Part shown: positions 46,870 through 55,207 of the stretch, piece after piece | How positions within the stretch are numbered: position 1 is the stretch's first letter | Layout: each line of letters starts with the position of its first letter | Origin: Promethearchaeota archaeon | Lineage (GTDB): Archaea; Asgardarchaeota; Lokiarchaeia; Sigyniarchaeales; SOKP01 | Length of the DNA stretch: 64,000 nt | Assembly: GCA_016840165.1 (NCBI GenBank) | Contig: JAEOSU010000080.1 | Span: 96,001-160,000, forward strand | Reading direction: 5' to 3' | Position numbers and translations under genes: made by a program | The notes under the pieces: generated by a model | Database searches by the model: none | What the model saw: only the letters and a program-made list of their open reading frames with translations | Told to the model about the DNA's origin: nothing

Positions 46870-47616
46870 ATGATGATGAAGCTCTTAGTAATCATTCCTG
46901 CATTTAATGAAGAGAAGACTATTGAGAATGTAGTAAAAAGTATTCCTAATATTCCTAATATAGATCAAGATGTGCTCGTTATCGATGATGGAAGCAGTGA
47001 TAATACTTTAATATATGCTAAAAAACAAGGAGCTGAGACTCGCTCAAATAGAAGAAATATGGGACTTGGTTCGGCTTTTAAATTAGGTTTAAATTATGTT
47101 TTACAAGAAAAAGTCGATTATATAGCAATTTTGGATGCTGATGGACAATATGAGCCATATGGATTAAAAAGACTCATCAATCCAATTATTAATGAAAATT
47201 ATGATTTGGTTATCGGTAATCGTTTCATTAATGGAGGATATTTTGAAGCAAGAACTATAAAACGTCTGGGAAATCTCTTTATTTCTACACTTATATCGAA
47301 AGTATTATTAAGATTAGAGATAGTCTATGATATTCAATCTTCTTTTAGGGCATTCAATAAAAAGTTAGCTATATTTATTTTAAACAATATTAACGCGAAA
47401 TATAATTATGCTCAAGAAATGTTTATTTTAGCTAGCCTATATAGATTCAGGATTAAGCAGATCCCGGTTATATGTAAAAAGAGACATTCAGGAAAATCCA
47501 GACTTATTAAAAACCCAGCTCTCCATATAGTTCGAATATTATGGGTTTGTCTTAAAACATTTATAAAAAATTTTTTTATAAGGAATTACTCTTTTCCCTC
47601 ATCAAGTCCTAATTGA
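46870..47616 (+). CDS. GT2 glycosyltransferase (DPM1-like)
   Basis: IIPAFNEE, IDDGSSDNT, LDADGQY, VIGNRF. Confidence 0.9.
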   Translation: MMMKLLVIIPAFNEEKTIENVVKSIPNIPNIDQDVLVIDDGSSDNTLIYAKKQGAETRSNRRNMGLGSAFKLGLNYVLQEKVDYIAILDADGQYEPYGLKRLINPIINENYDLVIGNRFINGGYFEARTIKRLGNLFISTLISKVLLRLEIVYDIQSSFRAFNKKLAIFILNNINAKYNYAQEMFILASLYRFRIKQIPVICKKRHSGKSRLIKNPALHIVRILWVCLKTFIKNFFIRNYSFPSSSPN

Positions 47617-48344
47617 GAGATCATCATTCTTTTTAAATCCTGTCTATTTTTTGGCAGCCCAAACATATCTGCATATTTGTCTGTAGTCATTAATTCATGG
47701 CTTCTTCCTTTTTTTTCTGCAGATATTAATTCATTATCAAGGAGATACTTAACATGTTCGTATGCACCAGTACCTCTAATTTTTATGACAGTTGACTTTA
47801 AAATTGGTTGCTTTAAGGCAATTATAGTAAGGGTTCTTAAATACTTTTCCGCTATCGCCCCACCTTTAGTAAATTTGGAAATAGTTTCTGTATATTCCGG
47901 TCTTAGCTGCATTTGGTAGCGCTCTCCAACTTGCGCTATGACAAGCGCACTCGAGCGATCTAAATATTCATATGCAAGTTCGGTGATTAATTCTTCCACC
48001 AACTTTTTTGAGATTTCTAGTTTAGTGGCAATTTCTTCTATATCCAATGGACTTCCAGCAGCATAAAGAGCTCCTTCAATTAAATTTTTTTGGATAATCC
48101 GAAATTCTTTATCTTCATCTAAAGTTTCTTTTTCTATTTTTTCTTCTCCAATATCCATTTCATCGCTGTCCTCACTCTCAATATCTTCGATTTGCTCACT
48201 ATCTTGATCAATAGTATCATTTATTTCAGTATCAGATTCATTATTTTCATGGGATCCTTGTTCTGGATCAGATATGGATTCAACTTCTTTTTGATTTTCA
48301 TCTTTTAAATATTCCTCAATTTGATTTTCTTCCTCATTATCCAT
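47586..48344 (-). CDS. scpB: SMC-Scp complex subunit ScpB with acidic N-terminal extension
   Basis: IEGALYAAGSPL, LRTLTIIALKQPILKS..IRG, TTDKYADMFGL. Confidence 0.92.
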   Translation of the reverse strand: MDNEEENQIEEYLKDENQKEVESISDPEQGSHENNESDTEINDTIDQDSEQIEDIESEDSDEMDIGEEKIEKETLDEDKEFRIIQKNLIEGALYAAGSPLDIEEIATKLEISKKLVEELITELAYEYLDRSSALVIAQVGERYQMQLRPEYTETISKFTKGGAIAEKYLRTLTIIALKQPILKSTVIKIRGTGAYEHVKYLLDNELISAEKKGRSHELMTTDKYADMFGLPKNRQDLKRMMISQLGLDEGKE

Positions 48345-48359
48345 GGTTTAATCTCCCAA

Positions 48360-49355
48360 TTATCTTATATTAATTATAAAATCCCTAAAATCCTCTTCCT
48401 GGTTTAAGGTTAACTTATTTCCCGTTGAGAGAAACATTAATGCTAAAAACATCCTTACAAATGCAAATCTTCTTCCAATATCAGATGGTTCTTCATTTTT
48501 AATTATTTGAGCTAAATCAAAAAAAGTAGTCTCTACACCTTCTAAGTTTATTTTTGCTTTTATTCGATTAAACCAGGACTCATGTAATTCCTCTATTGAT
48601 TGTTCTCTTCCACTGATATGCTTTAATAATTCTTTTGGTAACTGAGCTTTTGATCTCATCTGGATTTTTTGTTCTTTTAATTGTTCTCTTCGTAATCGTC
48701 TCCGCCTTAATTTCTCTTTATTTTGCATTGTTTCTATTATAGCAGAGCGCATAGCTTCGAATAACTCCTCTTTTGTTGCAATAAGCATTTTTGGCTGCAA
48801 TGGTTGAGATAATGTTTTCGGGATGGTTCTAGCATGCGATTGCCTGAACTTTTCGAGCTCCTCTTTTTTCTGTATTTCCTCCTCTTGTTTAATGATGCTC
48901 GAGATTTTATAGTGATGTAATGATGCAGAGGTTTTGAGAGCAATTCCTGAAATTTTGTAATTTATTAGACTTTCATGGAGCATGTTATCGAAAAATTTGT
49001 CTACCAGTGAAGCTAAGTCGTAAAATGCTACATTTGAATCTTTTGCGAGCTCCGTATCCAACAAACTCGAATAAGGAGGTTTTTGCCAGAATTTCAATTC
49101 CATTTTTTCCTTATACAATAAAGCAGGGTCATCATCTTCCTCTACTCCCGCAATTAATTCTTCTTCTAACTCAACTTCTTGCGTTCGATCAATAAAATCC
49201 GGGTGAGAAACAATCTCCTCCAGTAATTTAATTATATCTTTCTTTTTTGATTTAGAAGGAATTGTAATATTATTTTTTCCAGCAAAATCTCTTAATTGTG
49301 CAACAGTCCATTCAGTAAATTTGTTTTCTTCTTTAGCTTCACTTTCTTTTGAAAT
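48360..49355 (-). CDS. scpA: Kleisin ScpA with N-terminal HeH/SAP-like domain (ORF track start 49118; inferred ATT start 49355, 331 aa)
   Basis: YDLASLVDKF...ISGIALKTSASLHHYK N-kleisin; FLALMFL...LNQEEDF C-terminal winged helix; lies between smc and scpB; frame open upstream to a GGTGA-preceded ATT. Confidence 0.85.
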   Translation of the reverse strand: MSKESEAKEENKFTEWTVAQLRDFAGKNNITIPSKSKKKDIIKLLEEIVSHPDFIDRTQEVELEEELIAGVEEDDDPALLYKEKMELKFWQKPPYSSLLDTELAKDSNVAFYDLASLVDKFFDNMLHESLINYKISGIALKTSASLHHYKISSIIKQEEEIQKKEELEKFRQSHARTIPKTLSQPLQPKMLIATKEELFEAMRSAIIETMQNKEKLRRRRLRREQLKEQKIQMRSKAQLPKELLKHISGREQSIEELHESWFNRIKAKINLEGVETTFFDLAQIIKNEEPSDIGRRFAFVRMFLALMFLSTGNKLTLNQEEDFRDFIINIR

Positions 49356-49387: not shown

Positions 49388-52300
49388 TTAACTTTCCTCG
49401 ATGTTTGTGGGTACATCCGGTAATTCTAATAATTTTTTAGCCTCCTCCTCTAAATCGACGCTAAATATATCCGTTATACCACTTTGCTGCATTGTGACCC
49501 CATATATTCTATCTGCATTTACAATATTCTCTTCTCGATGACTAATAACCATGAATTGAGCTTGTTGAGCAAATTCTTTAATCACCATGCTTACTCTATG
49601 AACATTTGGACCGTCAAGGGCAGCATCTATTTCATCCATTATATAAAAGGGTGCGGGATAGAACTCCTGCACAGCAAAGATGAATGAGAGAGCTACGAGC
49701 GTTTTCTCTCCTCCACTAAGAATTTCCAAGCTTGAGATCTTCTTTCCTCTTGGTCGTGCTTCTATACTTACACCTCCTTCGAAAGGTTTATCCGGACGAT
49801 CTAAAATCATTTTAGCAGAGCCACCTGGGGATAATTTTTGAAAAATTCGCGAAAATTCTCGATTAATTTCATGATATGCTTTCATAAAAGTACGAGTTTT
49901 CTCAAGTTCAATCTTTTCTATAGCATCTAAGATAGCTTTACGTTCACGTTGGATTGTTTGTCTTCGCATATCGATCTCATCAAAGCGTTCTTTAACGGCA
50001 TCAAATTGTTCTATTGCTTTGAGATTTACAGGTTCCAAAGCATTTTTCTTTTTAGATGCTTCAGATATATCCGATTGGAGTCCAGATTCGGATAAATCAT
50101 CTGTAACAGGAGGAATAACACCATAATCTTTAGAACGATGATAAAGGGTTTCAATTTGATCTTTAGTAATTATAATTCTTGATTCATAATTATTTATTTT
50201 CGAATTTTCCATAGAATAATCTGTTTTTAAATCAGTGATTATTTTCTGATAGTTCTTTTGCTTATTCCAAGATTCATCTTTTTGTTGAATAAATTGATTT
50301 AATTCTTCTTGTTTGAGATTTTTGTTTTGTTTTTCTTGTGATAAATTCTCTTCGAATTTTTTTATTTCTATGGAGATTTTTTCAATTTCTTTCTCAGTAT
50401 CATCAATATCTTGATGTAATGCTAAAATTTTGTTTTCTCTTTCTTTATTTTTATTGATTTCATTTAAATTTCCTTGATTTTTCTGTAAATCATTATTAAG
50501 CTTATTTAGATTCTTTTGAGCGGCTTTCTGGAGCTCTATTTCTTTGCTTTTTTCTTGTCTTAATCCATCAATGATGTTTTGTATTTCATCAACTTTTGAT
50601 TGCAGGCTTTCAATCTGTTTTTTATTTTCCTCAACATTTTTCTTGCTAGCTTCAATATTTATCTTTGCATCTGAATTTTCTTTTGATAAATCCTCAATAG
50701 ACGTAATAATCATCATTATATTATCTAAAGATCTCAATTTGTTCATAGTTTCTTCTAAAATCTTATTTTGTTCGTCGATCTGAACCCTTATACTTTCAGT
50801 GTTTTCCCAAAATTTCTCCTTTTTACCAATTAATTCATTTATATTCGAATTGATGGATTCTTGTTCCCTGTTAACTGAGTCAATTTTATTTTTTATTTCA
50901 TTTATTGTCTCTTTCTTTGAGTCAATGTATTTTTTTAAATCTTCAATATTCGTCTCTATTTCAATAATACTATCAAAAAGAGATTGAATTCCCTGTAATT
51001 CTTGGAGATTTATCTGTAATTGTTCCAACTCTTTTTGTTTCGAATCGATTTTACCTTGAATTATTTCAATATTTTCCCAGTACTTAGATTTTAGATCTTT
51101 TAATTTTTTGATATCATCTTCATAATTTTCTTTTTCTTTTTCATTAATTTGATTACTCCTTTGACTTATTTCCTCTTCAGATTTACTTATAGTCTCACTC
51201 GCCTCAGAGATTTTTCTATTAACTTCATCTAATCGTTTAGTATACAGAGCAAAGTCTTCGGAATCCCGTTTTTTGTTAATATTAACCTCAGTTAATTTAT
51301 TCTCTATGGTATTTAAATCATCTGTTTGAGATGCAATGTTTAGAGAAATCGCCTCGAGTTGTTTATATAGGTCCTGACTCTTAGACATAGTTAGTTTTCT
51401 AAGAGAAATATAGACATTTTCAAGGATTTCCATAAGATCTTGAACAAAACTATCGAAGTTAGTCGTCGATTCTTGAATTTCAACATCAGCAGATTCTTTT
51501 ACTTTAGAAATTAACTGATCAATGGTAGAATCAACATTATCAGTAAATAGAGAAAGGGTTTGGAGTATTGAATTAATAGATTTCGAGGTTTCGCTTTCTT
51601 CATCAGTCTCACCACTAACGTCCTCAATGGTTTTCATAATATCTACGATATCTAATACAAATTTACGGAAATCATCAGCTGAAGTTTCAATAGCCTCAGC
51701 ATTTGATTGTTGTATATTACTCTTTATTGATTCTACACTAATATTGATATTTTGCGTTAACATATTTAGGATTTGAAGTATACCGGTTATATCTTCTGTA
51801 TTTCTCTCATATTCTTTTTCTGTTTTTTCAATTTTTAAAGAAAGTTCTTCTTTTTCTTTTATTAAATCATTTAAGCGTCTTTGAATATTTTCCTTTTTAG
51901 AAACGAGATTATTTTCGTCATTTTCTACTTTAGCGAGATTACTCTTTAGATTATTAACTTTTAACTCTGAATCACTCTTTTCTCGTTCAAGGTTTGTGAA
52001 GTCTCGGTTTACTAATTTTAATTTTGTATTTAGGTTTTCTATTTTTGCTTTGTGGTCATATATTTCTGATTCTATAGAATCTTGCTTCATTATCAATAAT
52101 TCTAAATCTTGTTCATATTTTCTGAATGTTGAATTTTCTTGTTGATATTCTTTCTTTAACTTATTTAATTCATTATTAATTGCTGATTTTTTATTCAGCA
52201 TTTCCTTTAAAACGATTTCTGTATCTTTACCCTCACTTAATTCTTTAATTCTGTTCTCAATTAATGTCTTTTTTTCCTCCATTTCCGCTATTCTCGTGTT

Positions 52301-53851
52301 ATTAATATTAATTTCCGTAGTTAAAGAGGATAAGGAGGATTGAAAGGCTAATTGATTTGAATTTAATTCACTTTGCTTATCCTGTAATTCTTTAATTTGA
52401 TTCTCTAGATTTTTCTGGTTTTGATTTTCTTTTGATATAGCTGATTTCAATTCATTTATTTTCTTTCTTATTGCGAGCTCCTCTTTTTTTGTAGCATCTA
52501 TTGCATCCTCTATACTTTCTGCCTCTCCTTTTAATTTTTTAAGATCCTCCTCTAATTTTATTTTCTTCTCTTCATTCTTCTTGATGTTCTCTTTAAGTAC
52601 TTTGATTTGAGCATTATCAGATGAAATATTTTGCTTCACATTTGAAATATCTGATTTAAACTTAGATTGTTCTTCATTTTTAAGCTTGATTTGATTATCT
52701 AAATCAGCTTGATTTTGCTGTCTTGTTTCTATTTCTTCTTTTGATTCTTCGATTAGTTTTTCAGTTTCAGAAATTTTGTTAGTAAATTCGCTTATAATTG
52801 AATCATAGGTTTGTCCCTCCTCAAGTTTCATCTGTTTATTCTCTAATGATACAATTTCTTTAGAATATTTATCAATAGTTTTCTTTGCAATTTCTAAACT
52901 GGTCTGATGAGAAGAGAGTTGAGTTTTTAATTGAGTAATATTTTCGTTAATAGTTTCTTTTTCCTTTTCCTTCTCAGTAATTGTTTTTTGGATGTTATCC
53001 ATGAGGAATGATTCCTGTTTTAATATTTCTTCTTGTCTAGTTATCCTCTCTTCCAGTTCCTCAATAATTTTGGTTGATTGCTCAACATTTTGCTGTAAAT
53101 TTTCTTCCTCCTCTTTTAATTTCGAAATCTTTAGAGCGATTAATTGAGCATTATAATATTTTATTTTTTCATCTAATTCCTTCCAAGCTAATGCATCATT
53201 CTTTTCTTTTTCAACTTTCTTCAACTGAGAGGATACCTCTTTAAAGATAGCTTCGAATTGACCCAAATCTCTCTCAGCTTTTTCTAGTTCTTTCATTGTT
53301 GCATCTTTCATTTCATCGTATTTCTGAAGGCCTATGAGTTCTTCAATAAAATCCCTTCGATTCTCCGGATTCATATGAGTCAATTCAACAATTTTCCCTT
53401 GTAAAACAAACTGATTTGTTCCATCAGGATCTATATTCGCAGTAGCTAGAGCATTTAGAATTTGCTGACGAGTTGCTCTTTTGCCATTTATTTTATATCC
53501 GCCCCCACCACCACGTTTAATTGAACGAGATACTTCAAATGTGTCACCTGGAGTAGGGAAAATATTCTCAGAATTATCGAAATATAGGCTAACCTTCGCT
53601 CTCTGAGAAGGATTCTTTCCTCTAGACCCCGCAAATATTAAATCTTCCAGACTCTTAGCTCTCATCGTCTTTTTGCTTAACCTTCCTAATGCAAATGTTA
53701 ATGCATCAATAATATTGGATTTTCCTGCTCCGTTTGGTCCCACAATGCAAGTAAAGCCACTTGAAAGCTTAATTGTTACAGTCCGGTCGCCAAAACTTTT
53801 AAACCCAGTCATTGATATTTTTTTTATGTGAGTCATCACATTATTCCTCAA
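49388..53851 (-). CDS. smc: Chromosome segregation ATPase SMC, elongated, with non-canonical hinge region
   Basis: GFKSF, GPNGAGKS, VLQG, LEPVNLKAIEQF, LSGGE, DEIDAALD, ISH. Real start probably 53836 or 53839. Confidence 0.95.
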   Translation of the reverse strand: MRNNVMTHIKKISMTGFKSFGDRTVTIKLSSGFTCIVGPNGAGKSNIIDALTFALGRLSKKTMRAKSLEDLIFAGSRGKNPSQRAKVSLYFDNSENIFPTPGDTFEVSRSIKRGGGGGYKINGKRATRQQILNALATANIDPDGTNQFVLQGKIVELTHMNPENRRDFIEELIGLQKYDEMKDATMKELEKAERDLGQFEAIFKEVSSQLKKVEKEKNDALAWKELDEKIKYYNAQLIALKISKLKEEEENLQQNVEQSTKIIEELEERITRQEEILKQESFLMDNIQKTITEKEKEKETINENITQLKTQLSSHQTSLEIAKKTIDKYSKEIVSLENKQMKLEEGQTYDSIISEFTNKISETEKLIEESKEEIETRQQNQADLDNQIKLKNEEQSKFKSDISNVKQNISSDNAQIKVLKENIKKNEEKKIKLEEDLKKLKGEAESIEDAIDATKKEELAIRKKINELKSAISKENQNQKNLENQIKELQDKQSELNSNQLAFQSSLSSLTTEININNTRIAEMEEKKTLIENRIKELSEGKDTEIVLKEMLNKKSAINNELNKLKKEYQQENSTFRKYEQDLELLIMKQDSIESEIYDHKAKIENLNTKLKLVNRDFTNLEREKSDSELKVNNLKSNLAKVENDENNLVSKKENIQRRLNDLIKEKEELSLKIEKTEKEYERNTEDITGILQILNMLTQNINISVESIKSNIQQSNAEAIETSADDFRKFVLDIVDIMKTIEDVSGETDEESETSKSINSILQTLSLFTDNVDSTIDQLISKVKESADVEIQESTTNFDSFVQDLMEILENVYISLRKLTMSKSQDLYKQLEAISLNIASQTDDLNTIENKLTEVNINKKRDSEDFALYTKRLDEVNRKISEASETISKSEEEISQRSNQINEKEKENYEDDIKKLKDLKSKYWENIEIIQGKIDSKQKELEQLQINLQELQGIQSLFDSIIEIETNIEDLKKYIDSKKETINEIKNKIDSVNREQESINSNINELIGKKEKFWENTESIRVQIDEQNKILEETMNKLRSLDNIMMIITSIEDLSKENSDAKINIEASKKNVEENKKQIESLQSKVDEIQNIIDGLRQEKSKEIELQKAAQKNLNKLNNDLQKNQGNLNEINKNKERENKILALHQDIDDTEKEIEKISIEIKKFEENLSQEKQNKNLKQEELNQFIQQKDESWNKQKNYQKIITDLKTDYSMENSKINNYESRIIITKDQIETLYHRSKDYGVIPPVTDDLSESGLQSDISEASKKKNALEPVNLKAIEQFDAVKERFDEIDMRRQTIQRERKAILDAIEKIELEKTRTFMKAYHEINREFSRIFQKLSPGGSAKMILDRPDKPFEGGVSIEARPRGKKISSLEILSGGEKTLVALSFIFAVQEFYPAPFYIMDEIDAALDGPNVHRVSMVIKEFAQQAQFMVISHREENIVNADRIYGVTMQQSGITDIFSVDLEEEAKKLLELPDVPTNIEES

Positions 53852-54016: not shown

Positions 54017-55207
54017 TTATTTGCCAAATATGGAATCTACAATCGCCTTAAGCTGTTTAGGATTAATAAATAAATAAAAAGATGTATCATCTGAAATCTT
54101 GCTAAAGATAGAACCCCTTTCAAATTTAAAACTCTTTTTAGAGATATTGATTAATCCCACACTCCTTAAATTTCGCAAAATGTCATTATATTGAGTTTTA
54201 CTGGCAATATATTCTATTGATTCACATGAGATGATATATAACTCTTTTAGCTTTTTATTAGATATGTAGTAATTAGAATTTCTTAAGAAAAAGTTTGCTA
54301 GATTATCCAGAAATATAATAATAAGGAGTTCTTCTTCAGAAATATAGGAAAGCAACGAAAATTCGTCTGAAATTTGGATGGAGTCAAATTGATTTTGAAT
54401 GAGTGAGATAAAATCTAAATGACTGATATATTTTGGATCTTTAAGAAGAGGATATAATTCTTTAAATATTTCAATTCCTTTTCCAGGCACGGGTACATAA
54501 TGTTCAAAAATTAAGTCTGTGATGTATTCAATCAATTCAATATCTATTTCGTGCATAAAAGTTAATGAAACTCTTTGTTTTAGAATATCTAATAATTCAG
54601 AATAAGAATAGAATTCTAATTTTTTTTTGTAATCAAACTCATTTAAAAGATCAAAAGTCTCACTTCGATTTACTCTATTTACTGTAGAAATTATTGTTGT
54701 TTTCGTCTCTTTTCCATAATTCAAAAATTTTTTGAAGTTTTGAGGTTTTAAATCTTCAATATTATTAAAAACCATAATCAACGGATTAGTAATTTTACTG
54801 GTTATCAGTTTAAATGTATTCCATAACTCAGATACACTAGCCTTTAAAAATGAAGTTAAATTTAGCTCAAAATTGCACATAAACGAGAGATCTGAGATTA
54901 AACCGAAAAAAATTTCATGCAGATTTTTGTCTTTACAATCTACACTAACTTCATAGATTATTGAATCCAATTGATTTTGATAGATTAGGTCTTTAGTAAC
55001 TTTATTTATTATAACTTTTTTACCTATTCCTTGCAGTCCTTGATATAGGACATTGCAACAGAAATTATCCGATAATGAATCGTTTAGAAGAGATTTAAGA
55101 TAATTCTCTTCTTTAGCTCGATATAATATTTTTGGAGGGACATAATTAACATCAAATAATGCTTTAGGACCAATATAATCATTAAATGTTTCAGATTTTA
55201 CTATCAT
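54017..55207 (-). CDS. Cdc6/Orc1-like AAA+ protein with degenerate Walker motifs
   Basis: LFDVNYVPPKILYRAKEE N-terminus, GLQGIGKK, VDC, YSYSELLDILKQRV, C-terminal winged helix (LY...C...LRSVGLI). Confidence 0.75.
   Translation of the reverse strand: MIVKSETFNDYIGPKALFDVNYVPPKILYRAKEENYLKSLLNDSLSDNFCCNVLYQGLQGIGKKVIINKVTKDLIYQNQLDSIIYEVSVDCKDKNLHEIFFGLISDLSFMCNFELNLTSFLKASVSELWNTFKLITSKITNPLIMVFNNIEDLKPQNFKKFLNYGKETKTTIISTVNRVNRSETFDLLNEFDYKKKLEFYSYSELLDILKQRVSLTFMHEIDIELIEYITDLIFEHYVPVPGKGIEIFKELYPLLKDPKYISHLDFISLIQNQFDSIQISDEFSLLSYISEEELLIIIFLDNLANFFLRNSNYYISNKKLKELYIISCESIEYIASKTQYNDILRNLRSVGLINISKKSFKFERGSIFSKISDDTSFYLFINPKQLKAIVDSIFGK

Follow-up and report, generated by a model that had tools for sequence, protein, structure and literature searches.

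The 64,000-nucleotide stretch of DNA analyzed here (the window: positions 96,001 to 160,000 of contig JAEOSU010000080.1, Promethearchaeota archaeon assembly GCA_016840165.1) encodes a long protein of the SMC family (structural maintenance of chromosomes) in which a duplicated helical module lies at the apex, opposite the hinge of related SMCs. The gene (49388-53836, minus strand) encodes 1482 amino acids (aa) from a Met at codon 6. The open reading frame (ORF) that contains it (49388-53851, minus strand) has 1487 codons and starts with TTG. The Met at codon 6 is the likely start, and most homologues, which are 1474 to 1487 aa long, begin at the equivalent Met. Residue numbers throughout refer to the 1487-aa TTG-started ORF.

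An earlier inspection of the DNA letters, referred to below as the sequence-only reading, held that the head motifs of this protein are intact, and we found all four of them in the translation. The N-terminal half of the ATPase head (aa 6-170; 53342-53836, minus strand) contains the Walker A motif GPNGAGKS and matches the SMC_N and SMC_prok models, while the C-terminal half (aa 1246-1487; 49391-50116, minus strand) contains the signature LSGGEK, the Walker B motif MDEIDAALD and the H-loop ISHR. Pfam SMC_N matched aa 8-1460 with 158 bits, the match of a complete split ABC-type ATPase head. The head is 87-98% conserved, with values of 0.87-0.97 per 30-aa block in the N-terminal half and 0.95-0.98 in the C-terminal half.

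Curated family models also placed the protein among the SMCs. In the TIGR02168/TIGR02169 test, SMC_prok_B scored 603.2 bits, above its cut-off of 567.35, and SMC_prok_A scored 619.5 bits, below its cut-off of 729.4; the whole-protein SMC_prok match falls in five stretches and skips the hinge. The Rad50 models scored 105-111 bits, far below their cut-offs of 700-1087, the RecN model scored 42.6 bits against a cut-off of 408 and matched the head only, and no match to MukB was seen in the same search of curated family models.

The hinge is held to be a defining part of SMC proteins, with roles in dimerization and DNA binding and, in some models, as a DNA gate or anchor in loop extrusion. According to the sequence-only reading, the long SMC has neither the Gly-rich alpha/beta hinge nor the CxxC hook of Rad50. 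Scanning with the Pfam SMC_hinge model (PF06470) gave no match in the long SMC, even at E values of up to 10 on the isolated segments aa 560-960 or aa 640-860, and the same model detected the hinge in the other SMC of the same genome as a positive control. In a six-frame search of the genome, SMC_prok_A matched the long SMC gene at profile positions 1-522 and 753-1165 and skipped positions 523-752, the hinge part of the profile. When the profile of the apex module was compared by HHalign with a profile of 14 Asgard hinge domains, the probability of a match was 0.14%. The module contains 2 Gly and no Pro and has a net charge of -16, whereas the hinge of a related Loki SMC contains 12 Gly and 3 Pro and has a net charge of +10. 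The only Cys of the protein is at aa 35, in the head, so there is no CxxC hook and metal-mediated hooking is impossible. It is free of Pro between aa 162 and aa 1247. Both absences proposed from the letters thus hold. With the module alone, Pfam returned sub-threshold matches of the coiled-coil type (Apolipoprotein, MCPsignal and others), none of them close to the cut-off.

At the apex lie two homologous units. Unit 1 (aa 684-748; 51608-51802, minus strand) contains the invariant TGILQILNMLTQNINISVESIKSNIQQSNAEAIE, scores 87 bits with a single-unit hidden Markov model (HMM), and has a conservation of 0.98 over aa 691-720. Unit 2 (aa 755-825; 51377-51589, minus strand) contains VKESADVEIQ..FDSFVQDLMEILENVY.SLRKLTMS, scores 95.5 bits, and has a conservation of 0.88-0.92. 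Between them is an acidic loop (aa 749-754; 51590-51607, minus strand), marked as variable by alignment gaps; both its length and its sequence vary, and it is at least 12 residues longer in some relatives.

The two similar segments picked out in the sequence-only reading, joined by the acidic loop, were located at aa 688-742 (nucleotides 51626-51790) and aa 759-813 (nucleotides 51413-51577), and their similarity is beyond chance. BLASTP aligned the unit 1 half with the unit 2 half without gaps at E 8e-8 (16 of 58 residues identical). The Smith-Waterman score of the two halves was 92, compared with 35.6 +/- 6.7 (maximum 65) in 1000 shuffles and with 33-62 for control pieces of the arms of equal length. 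HHalign of the family profiles of both halves gave a probability of 98.6% and an E value of 8.4e-16 over 59 ungapped columns. The single-unit HMM (about 70 aa) found two units, neither more nor fewer, in each of the long SMCs tested and detected no unit in the hinge-bearing or SMC5/6-like SMCs tested; two units were also found in sequences outside its build set, such as the annotated Smc of Lokiarchaeum ossiferum.

We then compared the long SMC family with hinge-bearing SMCs by HHalign. Residues 683-854 aligned with the hinge of a 1195-aa Loki SMC (residues 505-677), and the extra length, about 290 residues, was spread as insertions over both arms. The module is therefore a like-for-like replacement of the hinge on longer arms. 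Relative to hinge-bearing Asgard SMCs, the N-terminal arm strand (aa 171-682; 51806-53341, minus strand), which is helical in the model, is about 167 residues longer, with insertions at aa 276-289, 294-355, 373-392, 535-561, 609-622, 649-662 and 667-682. The C-terminal arm strand (aa 826-1245; 50117-51376, minus strand) is about 103 residues longer, with insertions at aa 838-845, 914-954, 1034-1046, 1067-1080 and 1109-1135.

Outside the heads, the apex is the best conserved part of the protein. Across 107 full-length homologues, conservation was 98% at aa 691-720 and about 90% at aa 781-840, equal to that of the ATPase motifs, compared with 60-75% in the arms. The helices of the module are also more hydrophobic (36-44%) and less charged (25%) than the arms (27-28% and 38-40%, respectively), and the most hydrophobic windows between the heads are in the last helix of the module. 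Such a composition suggests that each module helix has more than one buried face, as in a multi-helix bundle.

The structure of the tip was predicted with two AlphaFold models. The AlphaFold2 model of aa 600-900, built from an alignment of 68 rows, was entirely helical with a mean predicted local distance difference test (pLDDT) score of 83.7. Its helices cover aa 601-714, 718-746, 754-786, 789-822 and 824-899; breaks at aa 715-717 and 787-788 divide the module into four helices, the long arm helices (aa 601-714 and 824-899) have pLDDT values above 90, and the sole stretch of low confidence is the acidic loop at aa 747-753. The second model, of aa 676-845 with 48 rows that included distant members, was also all helix (pLDDT 79.3) and consisted of two continuous long helices that turn only at the acidic loop. 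The acidic loop, with a pLDDT below 60, is the only non-helical stretch common to both. Both models are consistent with the absence of an alpha/beta hinge fold. The sequence-only reading had further proposed a pseudo-symmetric helical-bundle domain for dimerization. Of that proposal, a duplicated, all-helical domain at the hinge position stands; on the bundle itself, the models disagree between a compact bundle and a straight hairpin. A match to the hinge profile, a hinge fold in the prediction and signs of misassembly would each have spoken against the sequence-only reading, and none of the three turned up.

Searches of known structures returned only common helical shapes. Foldseek with the 301-aa model against the PDB found generic antiparallel helical hairpins and coiled coils, including arm fragments of SMC and MukB, and VIA-align of the 170-aa model against 48,161 chains found the same kinds of fold with scores typical of any helical model. 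A profile search of PDB sequences gave designed helical bundles only, at E 1e-4 or weaker, which we judged to be compositional. In the ESM Atlas feature search with aa 676-845, all matches were below 0.9 and none was named. The alternative that the module interrupts one arm as an insertion and is not the apex was rejected, since HHalign sets the module opposite the hinge and both models turn the chain there.

Directly downstream of the smc gene is an scpA-like kleisin gene (48360-49118, minus strand), the C-terminal part of which matches SMC_ScpA at E 0.008, followed by the scpB (kite) gene (47586-48344, minus strand; SMC_ScpB 121.5 bits). The order smc-scpA-scpB also adjoins the long SMCs of genomes G147, G213, G165 and G193, and the gene at the scpA position in G147 has weak matches to ScpA and Rad21_Rec8. 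The long SMC is an SMC with ordinary heads and ordinary partner genes.

The distribution of the module was mapped with sequence searches of several kinds. A word-indexed search with aa 620-880 returned 170 proteins, nearly all 1474-1487 aa long and 59-99% identical over the apex; the named ones were Lokiarchaeota or Promethearchaeota. None of the 120 apex homologues among the matches listed had an SMC_hinge match. When 1.84 billion representatives were scanned exhaustively with HMMER, only 35 clusters came up. In 300 sampled Asgard genomes, the module was present in 60 of 68 genomes of its own family and in all 7 of a sister family, and so in 67 of 75 genomes of the Asgard order to which both families belong. 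Only four hits lay outside the order: those in G193 and G205 are strong and probably stem from mis-binning, and those in G072 and G206 are weak (E about 1e-4). In all, 99 species-representative genomes carry the module; the named carriers include Candidatus Harpocratesius repetitus, a Sigynarchaeota metagenome-assembled genome, and the cultured Candidatus Lokiarchaeum ossiferum. A 1296-aa member of the long clade from a Candidatus Sigynarchaeota archaeon (P0141, MDO8116617.1) has the two-unit apex at aa 586-719 and shorter arms. The Sigynarchaeota form, which by its name comes from another Asgard lineage, points either to an older origin of the module or to its transfer between lineages.

The same helical module was also seen outside SMCs. 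A non-SMC protein of Ca. Harpocratesius repetitus (L015:2997-6122, minus strand; MCF2141576.1) carries it, as do P0140, P0142, P0144, P0148, P0154 and P0155. Proteins of this family, about 1000-1180 aa long and with no Pfam match, have the two-unit module twice in tandem near the N terminus: one strong pair of units spans about aa 69-209 and a weaker pair about aa 330-465. Behind these come a beta-rich region, a coiled coil and a long histone-H1-like tail rich in Lys. They were seen in the sister family of the order only; in the genome analyzed here (G000) none was found, and the single module hit was the long SMC. Its presence in non-SMC proteins shows that the module is portable.

The sequence-only reading had suggested looking for a second, canonical smc in the genome. 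The genome is 99.7% complete in 105 contigs, with an estimated contamination of 6.3%, and apart from the long SMC it encodes a single full SMC, a 1137-aa protein on a different contig (C54, L002:5516-10117, plus strand) with a weak hinge (SMC_hinge 26.8 bits) that scores only about 190 bits with the SMC_prok models. This protein is probably of the SMC5/6-related type described for archaea (PMC8665677). It is followed by ORFs of 216 aa and 174 aa that have no Pfam or NCBIfam match and are possibly the kleisin and the kite of an SMC5/6-related complex.

When SMC_hinge was searched in the 300 genomes, the genus of the present genome and four other genera of the family had only a weak hinge (E 1e-5 to 1e-11), in an SMC of about 1140 aa. 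An additional SMC of about 1200 aa, in which the hinge match is strong (E about 1e-30 to 1e-35), was detected in four genera of the family and in most of the sister family. Both paralogues, the long and the hinge-bearing SMC, are present in G040, G129, G147, G180, G138, G144, G183, G291, G089, G213, G282 and G285. Of the 27 genomes of the genus that were searched, none had a strong hinge hit, so that the long form is the only condensin-type SMC seen in that genus.

In the two-paralogue genomes checked (G147, G040, G144 and G213), each SMC has its own ScpB beside it in four of four. A short ScpB (about 190-200 aa) comes directly after the hinge SMC of the Loki genomes (about 1200 aa), without an intervening ORF of kleisin size (L003:2373-6543, L004:2177-6393, L005:1990-6124, L006:2101-6271 and L020:2043-6239). 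In the other Asgard lineages examined, the order at hinge SMCs is smc, an ORF of about 230 aa and an ORF of about 190 aa. The Loki hinge SMC may rely on the kleisin of the long SMC or on one whose gene lies elsewhere; in the Loki lineage, the ScpA profile is too weak to show whether the two-paralogue genomes have a second kleisin.

Trees of whole proteins and of heads alone recovered the long SMCs as a clade with support of 100/100, and the Loki hinge SMCs likewise (100/100). Both clades lie inside the canonical Asgard SMC group, which is separated by a 100/100 branch from two SMC5/6-like rows used as the outgroup. The long SMC is a distinct paralogue, and more than a canonical Smc with a changed hinge.

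Taken together, these results lead us to a reading that we hold to be somewhat probable: the long SMC is the SMC subunit of a second condensin-type Smc-ScpA-ScpB complex that originated in the Loki lineage, with the helical module joining the protomers at the apex. The module would hold two protomers together as a homodimer by packing the broad hydrophobic faces of its helices into a helical bundle, formed either by two four-helix caps side by side or by two hairpins that give a four-helix bundle. The kleisin would bridge both heads, and the complex would be an ATP-driven ring that holds DNA loops, like Smc-ScpAB. Because the module is acidic, the DNA-binding role of the hinge is probably lost or moved; the DNA contacts of the basic hinge surface may have passed to other parts of the complex. 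Dimerization through a foreign tip is plausible since a Bacillus subtilis Smc in which the zinc hook of Rad50 replaced the hinge was reported to be functional, given a suitable arm length (PMC5344682).

Several points weigh against this reading. We infer dimerization through the module from its position, conservation and hydrophobicity. The two models disagree, one giving a four-helix cap (aa 600-900) and the other a plain hairpin (aa 676-845); pLDDT at the apex is 57-85, and the alignments are shallow, with most rows over 60% identical. From head to apex, the N strand (aa 171-682) exceeds the C strand (aa 826-1245) by about 90 residues; a simple antiparallel coiled coil can accommodate this difference only with an additional N-strand element that folds back or loops out. 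The kleisin gene is matched weakly, support for the long clade and the Loki hinge clade as sisters is weak too (62/77), and the genomes in which no canonical Smc was found are metagenome-assembled.

On the other hand, the helical module may be a docking or regulatory tip rather than a dimerization domain. It would then bind another protein, possibly one with the same module, and the SMC protomers would be held along their arms or only through the heads and kleisin. Such a tip would be like the conserved end of a chemoreceptor hairpin or the end of the dynein stalk that binds microtubules. We regard this as the less likely possibility, although one that some of the data suit. Nearly all of aa 691-720 is invariant, beyond the core positions, which fits a partner-binding surface, and in the histone-H1-like-tailed proteins outside SMCs the two-unit module behaves as a portable interaction module. 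The structural neighbors of the module include chemoreceptor hairpins and dynein stalks, and the MCPsignal match, although marginal, had an E value of 0.012. However, those neighbors are generic helical hairpins with Z about 10, within the stated noise range of the tool for helical models. With one module hit in G000, no module-bearing partner outside SMCs is available in the genome itself, and no candidate partner of the apex was identified. To our knowledge, all characterized SMC-like proteins dimerize at the apex, which also counts against a docking tip.

It could also be argued that the region is a canonical hinge that has diverged past recognition in sequence while keeping the alpha/beta fold. 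The module has the same position as the hinge of related SMCs and nearly the same length (about 170 aa), and the hinge monomer is itself internally pseudo-symmetric. Nevertheless, we consider this very improbable, given the silence of SMC_hinge even at E values of up to 10, the negligible profile-profile probability, the scarcity of Gly and lack of Pro, the opposite charge, and the absence of any strand in either AlphaFold model; the profile search of PDB sequences, moreover, led only to designed helical bundles with marginal E values. An assembly or binning artefact or a decaying gene is scarcely credible, whatever the number of contigs and the estimated contamination might suggest, because the frame is open over 1487 codons, many studies have yielded the 170 homologues of this length, the module occurs in 72 of 301 sampled Asgard genomes, the apex is so well conserved, and two independent contigs bridge it without insertions or deletions and with substitutions only, one of 3198 nucleotides from another study (run X5; 50400-52517) and one of 530 nucleotides from a third (run X10; 51375-51904).

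A broader scenario we offer tentatively, as rather a long shot. The duplicated unit would be a portable self-association domain not described before, unrelated in mechanism to the hinge, that was recruited in Lokiarchaeia both to the apex of a condensin paralogue and to H1-tailed chromatin proteins; it would close rings and perhaps dock partners that bear the module, and the hinge-free condensin with its longer arms would then have displaced the canonical Smc in several Loki genera.

The long SMC was compared with known systems. It shares with the canonical Smc-ScpAB of Bacillus subtilis and Pyrococcus the ABC head motifs, the antiparallel coiled-coil arms and the order smc-scpA-scpB, but it has an acidic duplicated helical module in place of the alpha/beta hinge and longer arms (1482 aa in total, compared with about 1190 aa for canonical Smc), and it falls in a clade separate from the hinge SMCs of the same lineage. 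MukB and RecN are SMC-like ATPases that dimerize through reduced or helical apex regions and not through a full SMC hinge. The long SMC has no sequence relation to them, and their partners differ. Chemoreceptor cytoplasmic domains and the Maxi antifreeze protein form long antiparallel helical hairpins with a conserved tip, like the predicted shape of the module, and these hairpins pair into four-helix bundles. The likeness is one of shape only, with Z and TM values as for any helical hairpin and no sequence relation.

With Rad50/SbcC and the engineered Smc(Zn-hook) (PMC5344682), the long SMC has in common SMC-type heads and arms capped by a small apex that is not a hinge. It differs from Rad50/SbcC in having no CxxC, in its SMC-like heads and in its kleisin and kite partners, where the partner of Rad50 is Mre11. 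Homologues without a hinge have been reported in an oceanic clade of actinobacteria, in which the head and coiled coil were kept and the hinge was lost (Sussfeld et al. 2025, PMC12153180); hinge loss in the SMC family therefore has a precedent, in bacteria. Compared by description only, those proteins are bacterial, come from marine metagenomes and have no defined replacement module (PMC12153180), whereas the long SMC family is archaeal and has a conserved duplicated module and an scpAB operon. From the SMC5/6-related archaeal SMC (Yoshinaga and Inagaki 2021), the long clade groups apart, within the canonical Asgard SMCs (100/100).

Surveys of Asgard SMCs recognize a canonical and an SMC5/6-related complex (including PMC8665677) and do not mention a form without a hinge. 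In the literature searched, a hinge-less SMC with a helical tip has not been described in archaea. The kind of complex, an SMC with kleisin and kite, is already known; what is new is its apex, and with it a third type of SMC complex for Asgard archaea, beside the two in the published surveys. The long SMC is the only condensin-type SMC found in some lineages, and its carriers belong to the Asgard archaea, the prokaryotes closest to eukaryotes. The family is a natural experiment on which functions of the hinge an SMC can do without and on how the length of the arms is tuned; before, this had been approached only by engineered chimeras (PMC5344682). As the cultured Lokiarchaeum ossiferum carries the module, the question can be tested by experiment.

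Other observations concern the surroundings of the gene and the Asgard genomes at large. In a sediment metatranscriptome (run X20), two contigs of 151 nucleotides matched positions 50774-50924 and 51157-51304 with 1-3 mismatches; they lie in the C-terminal arm part only, and no X20 contig covers the apex region. They are a faint hint of transcription in a close relative and too little for a claim of transcription. Directly upstream of smc, the gene at 54017-55207 (minus strand) has a marginal match to the winged-helix domain Cdc6_C (E 0.056).

Three fairly complete Asgard genomes, G026 and G003 (family f7) and G015 (family f16), had no SMC_prok_A match at an E value of 1e-15 or below. In G259 (family f24), a 1203-aa SMC matched the whole profile with 614 bits, and in family f24 the Pfam hinge was matched only at E about 1e-3. 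The SMC repertoire seems to be very fluid across Asgard archaea.

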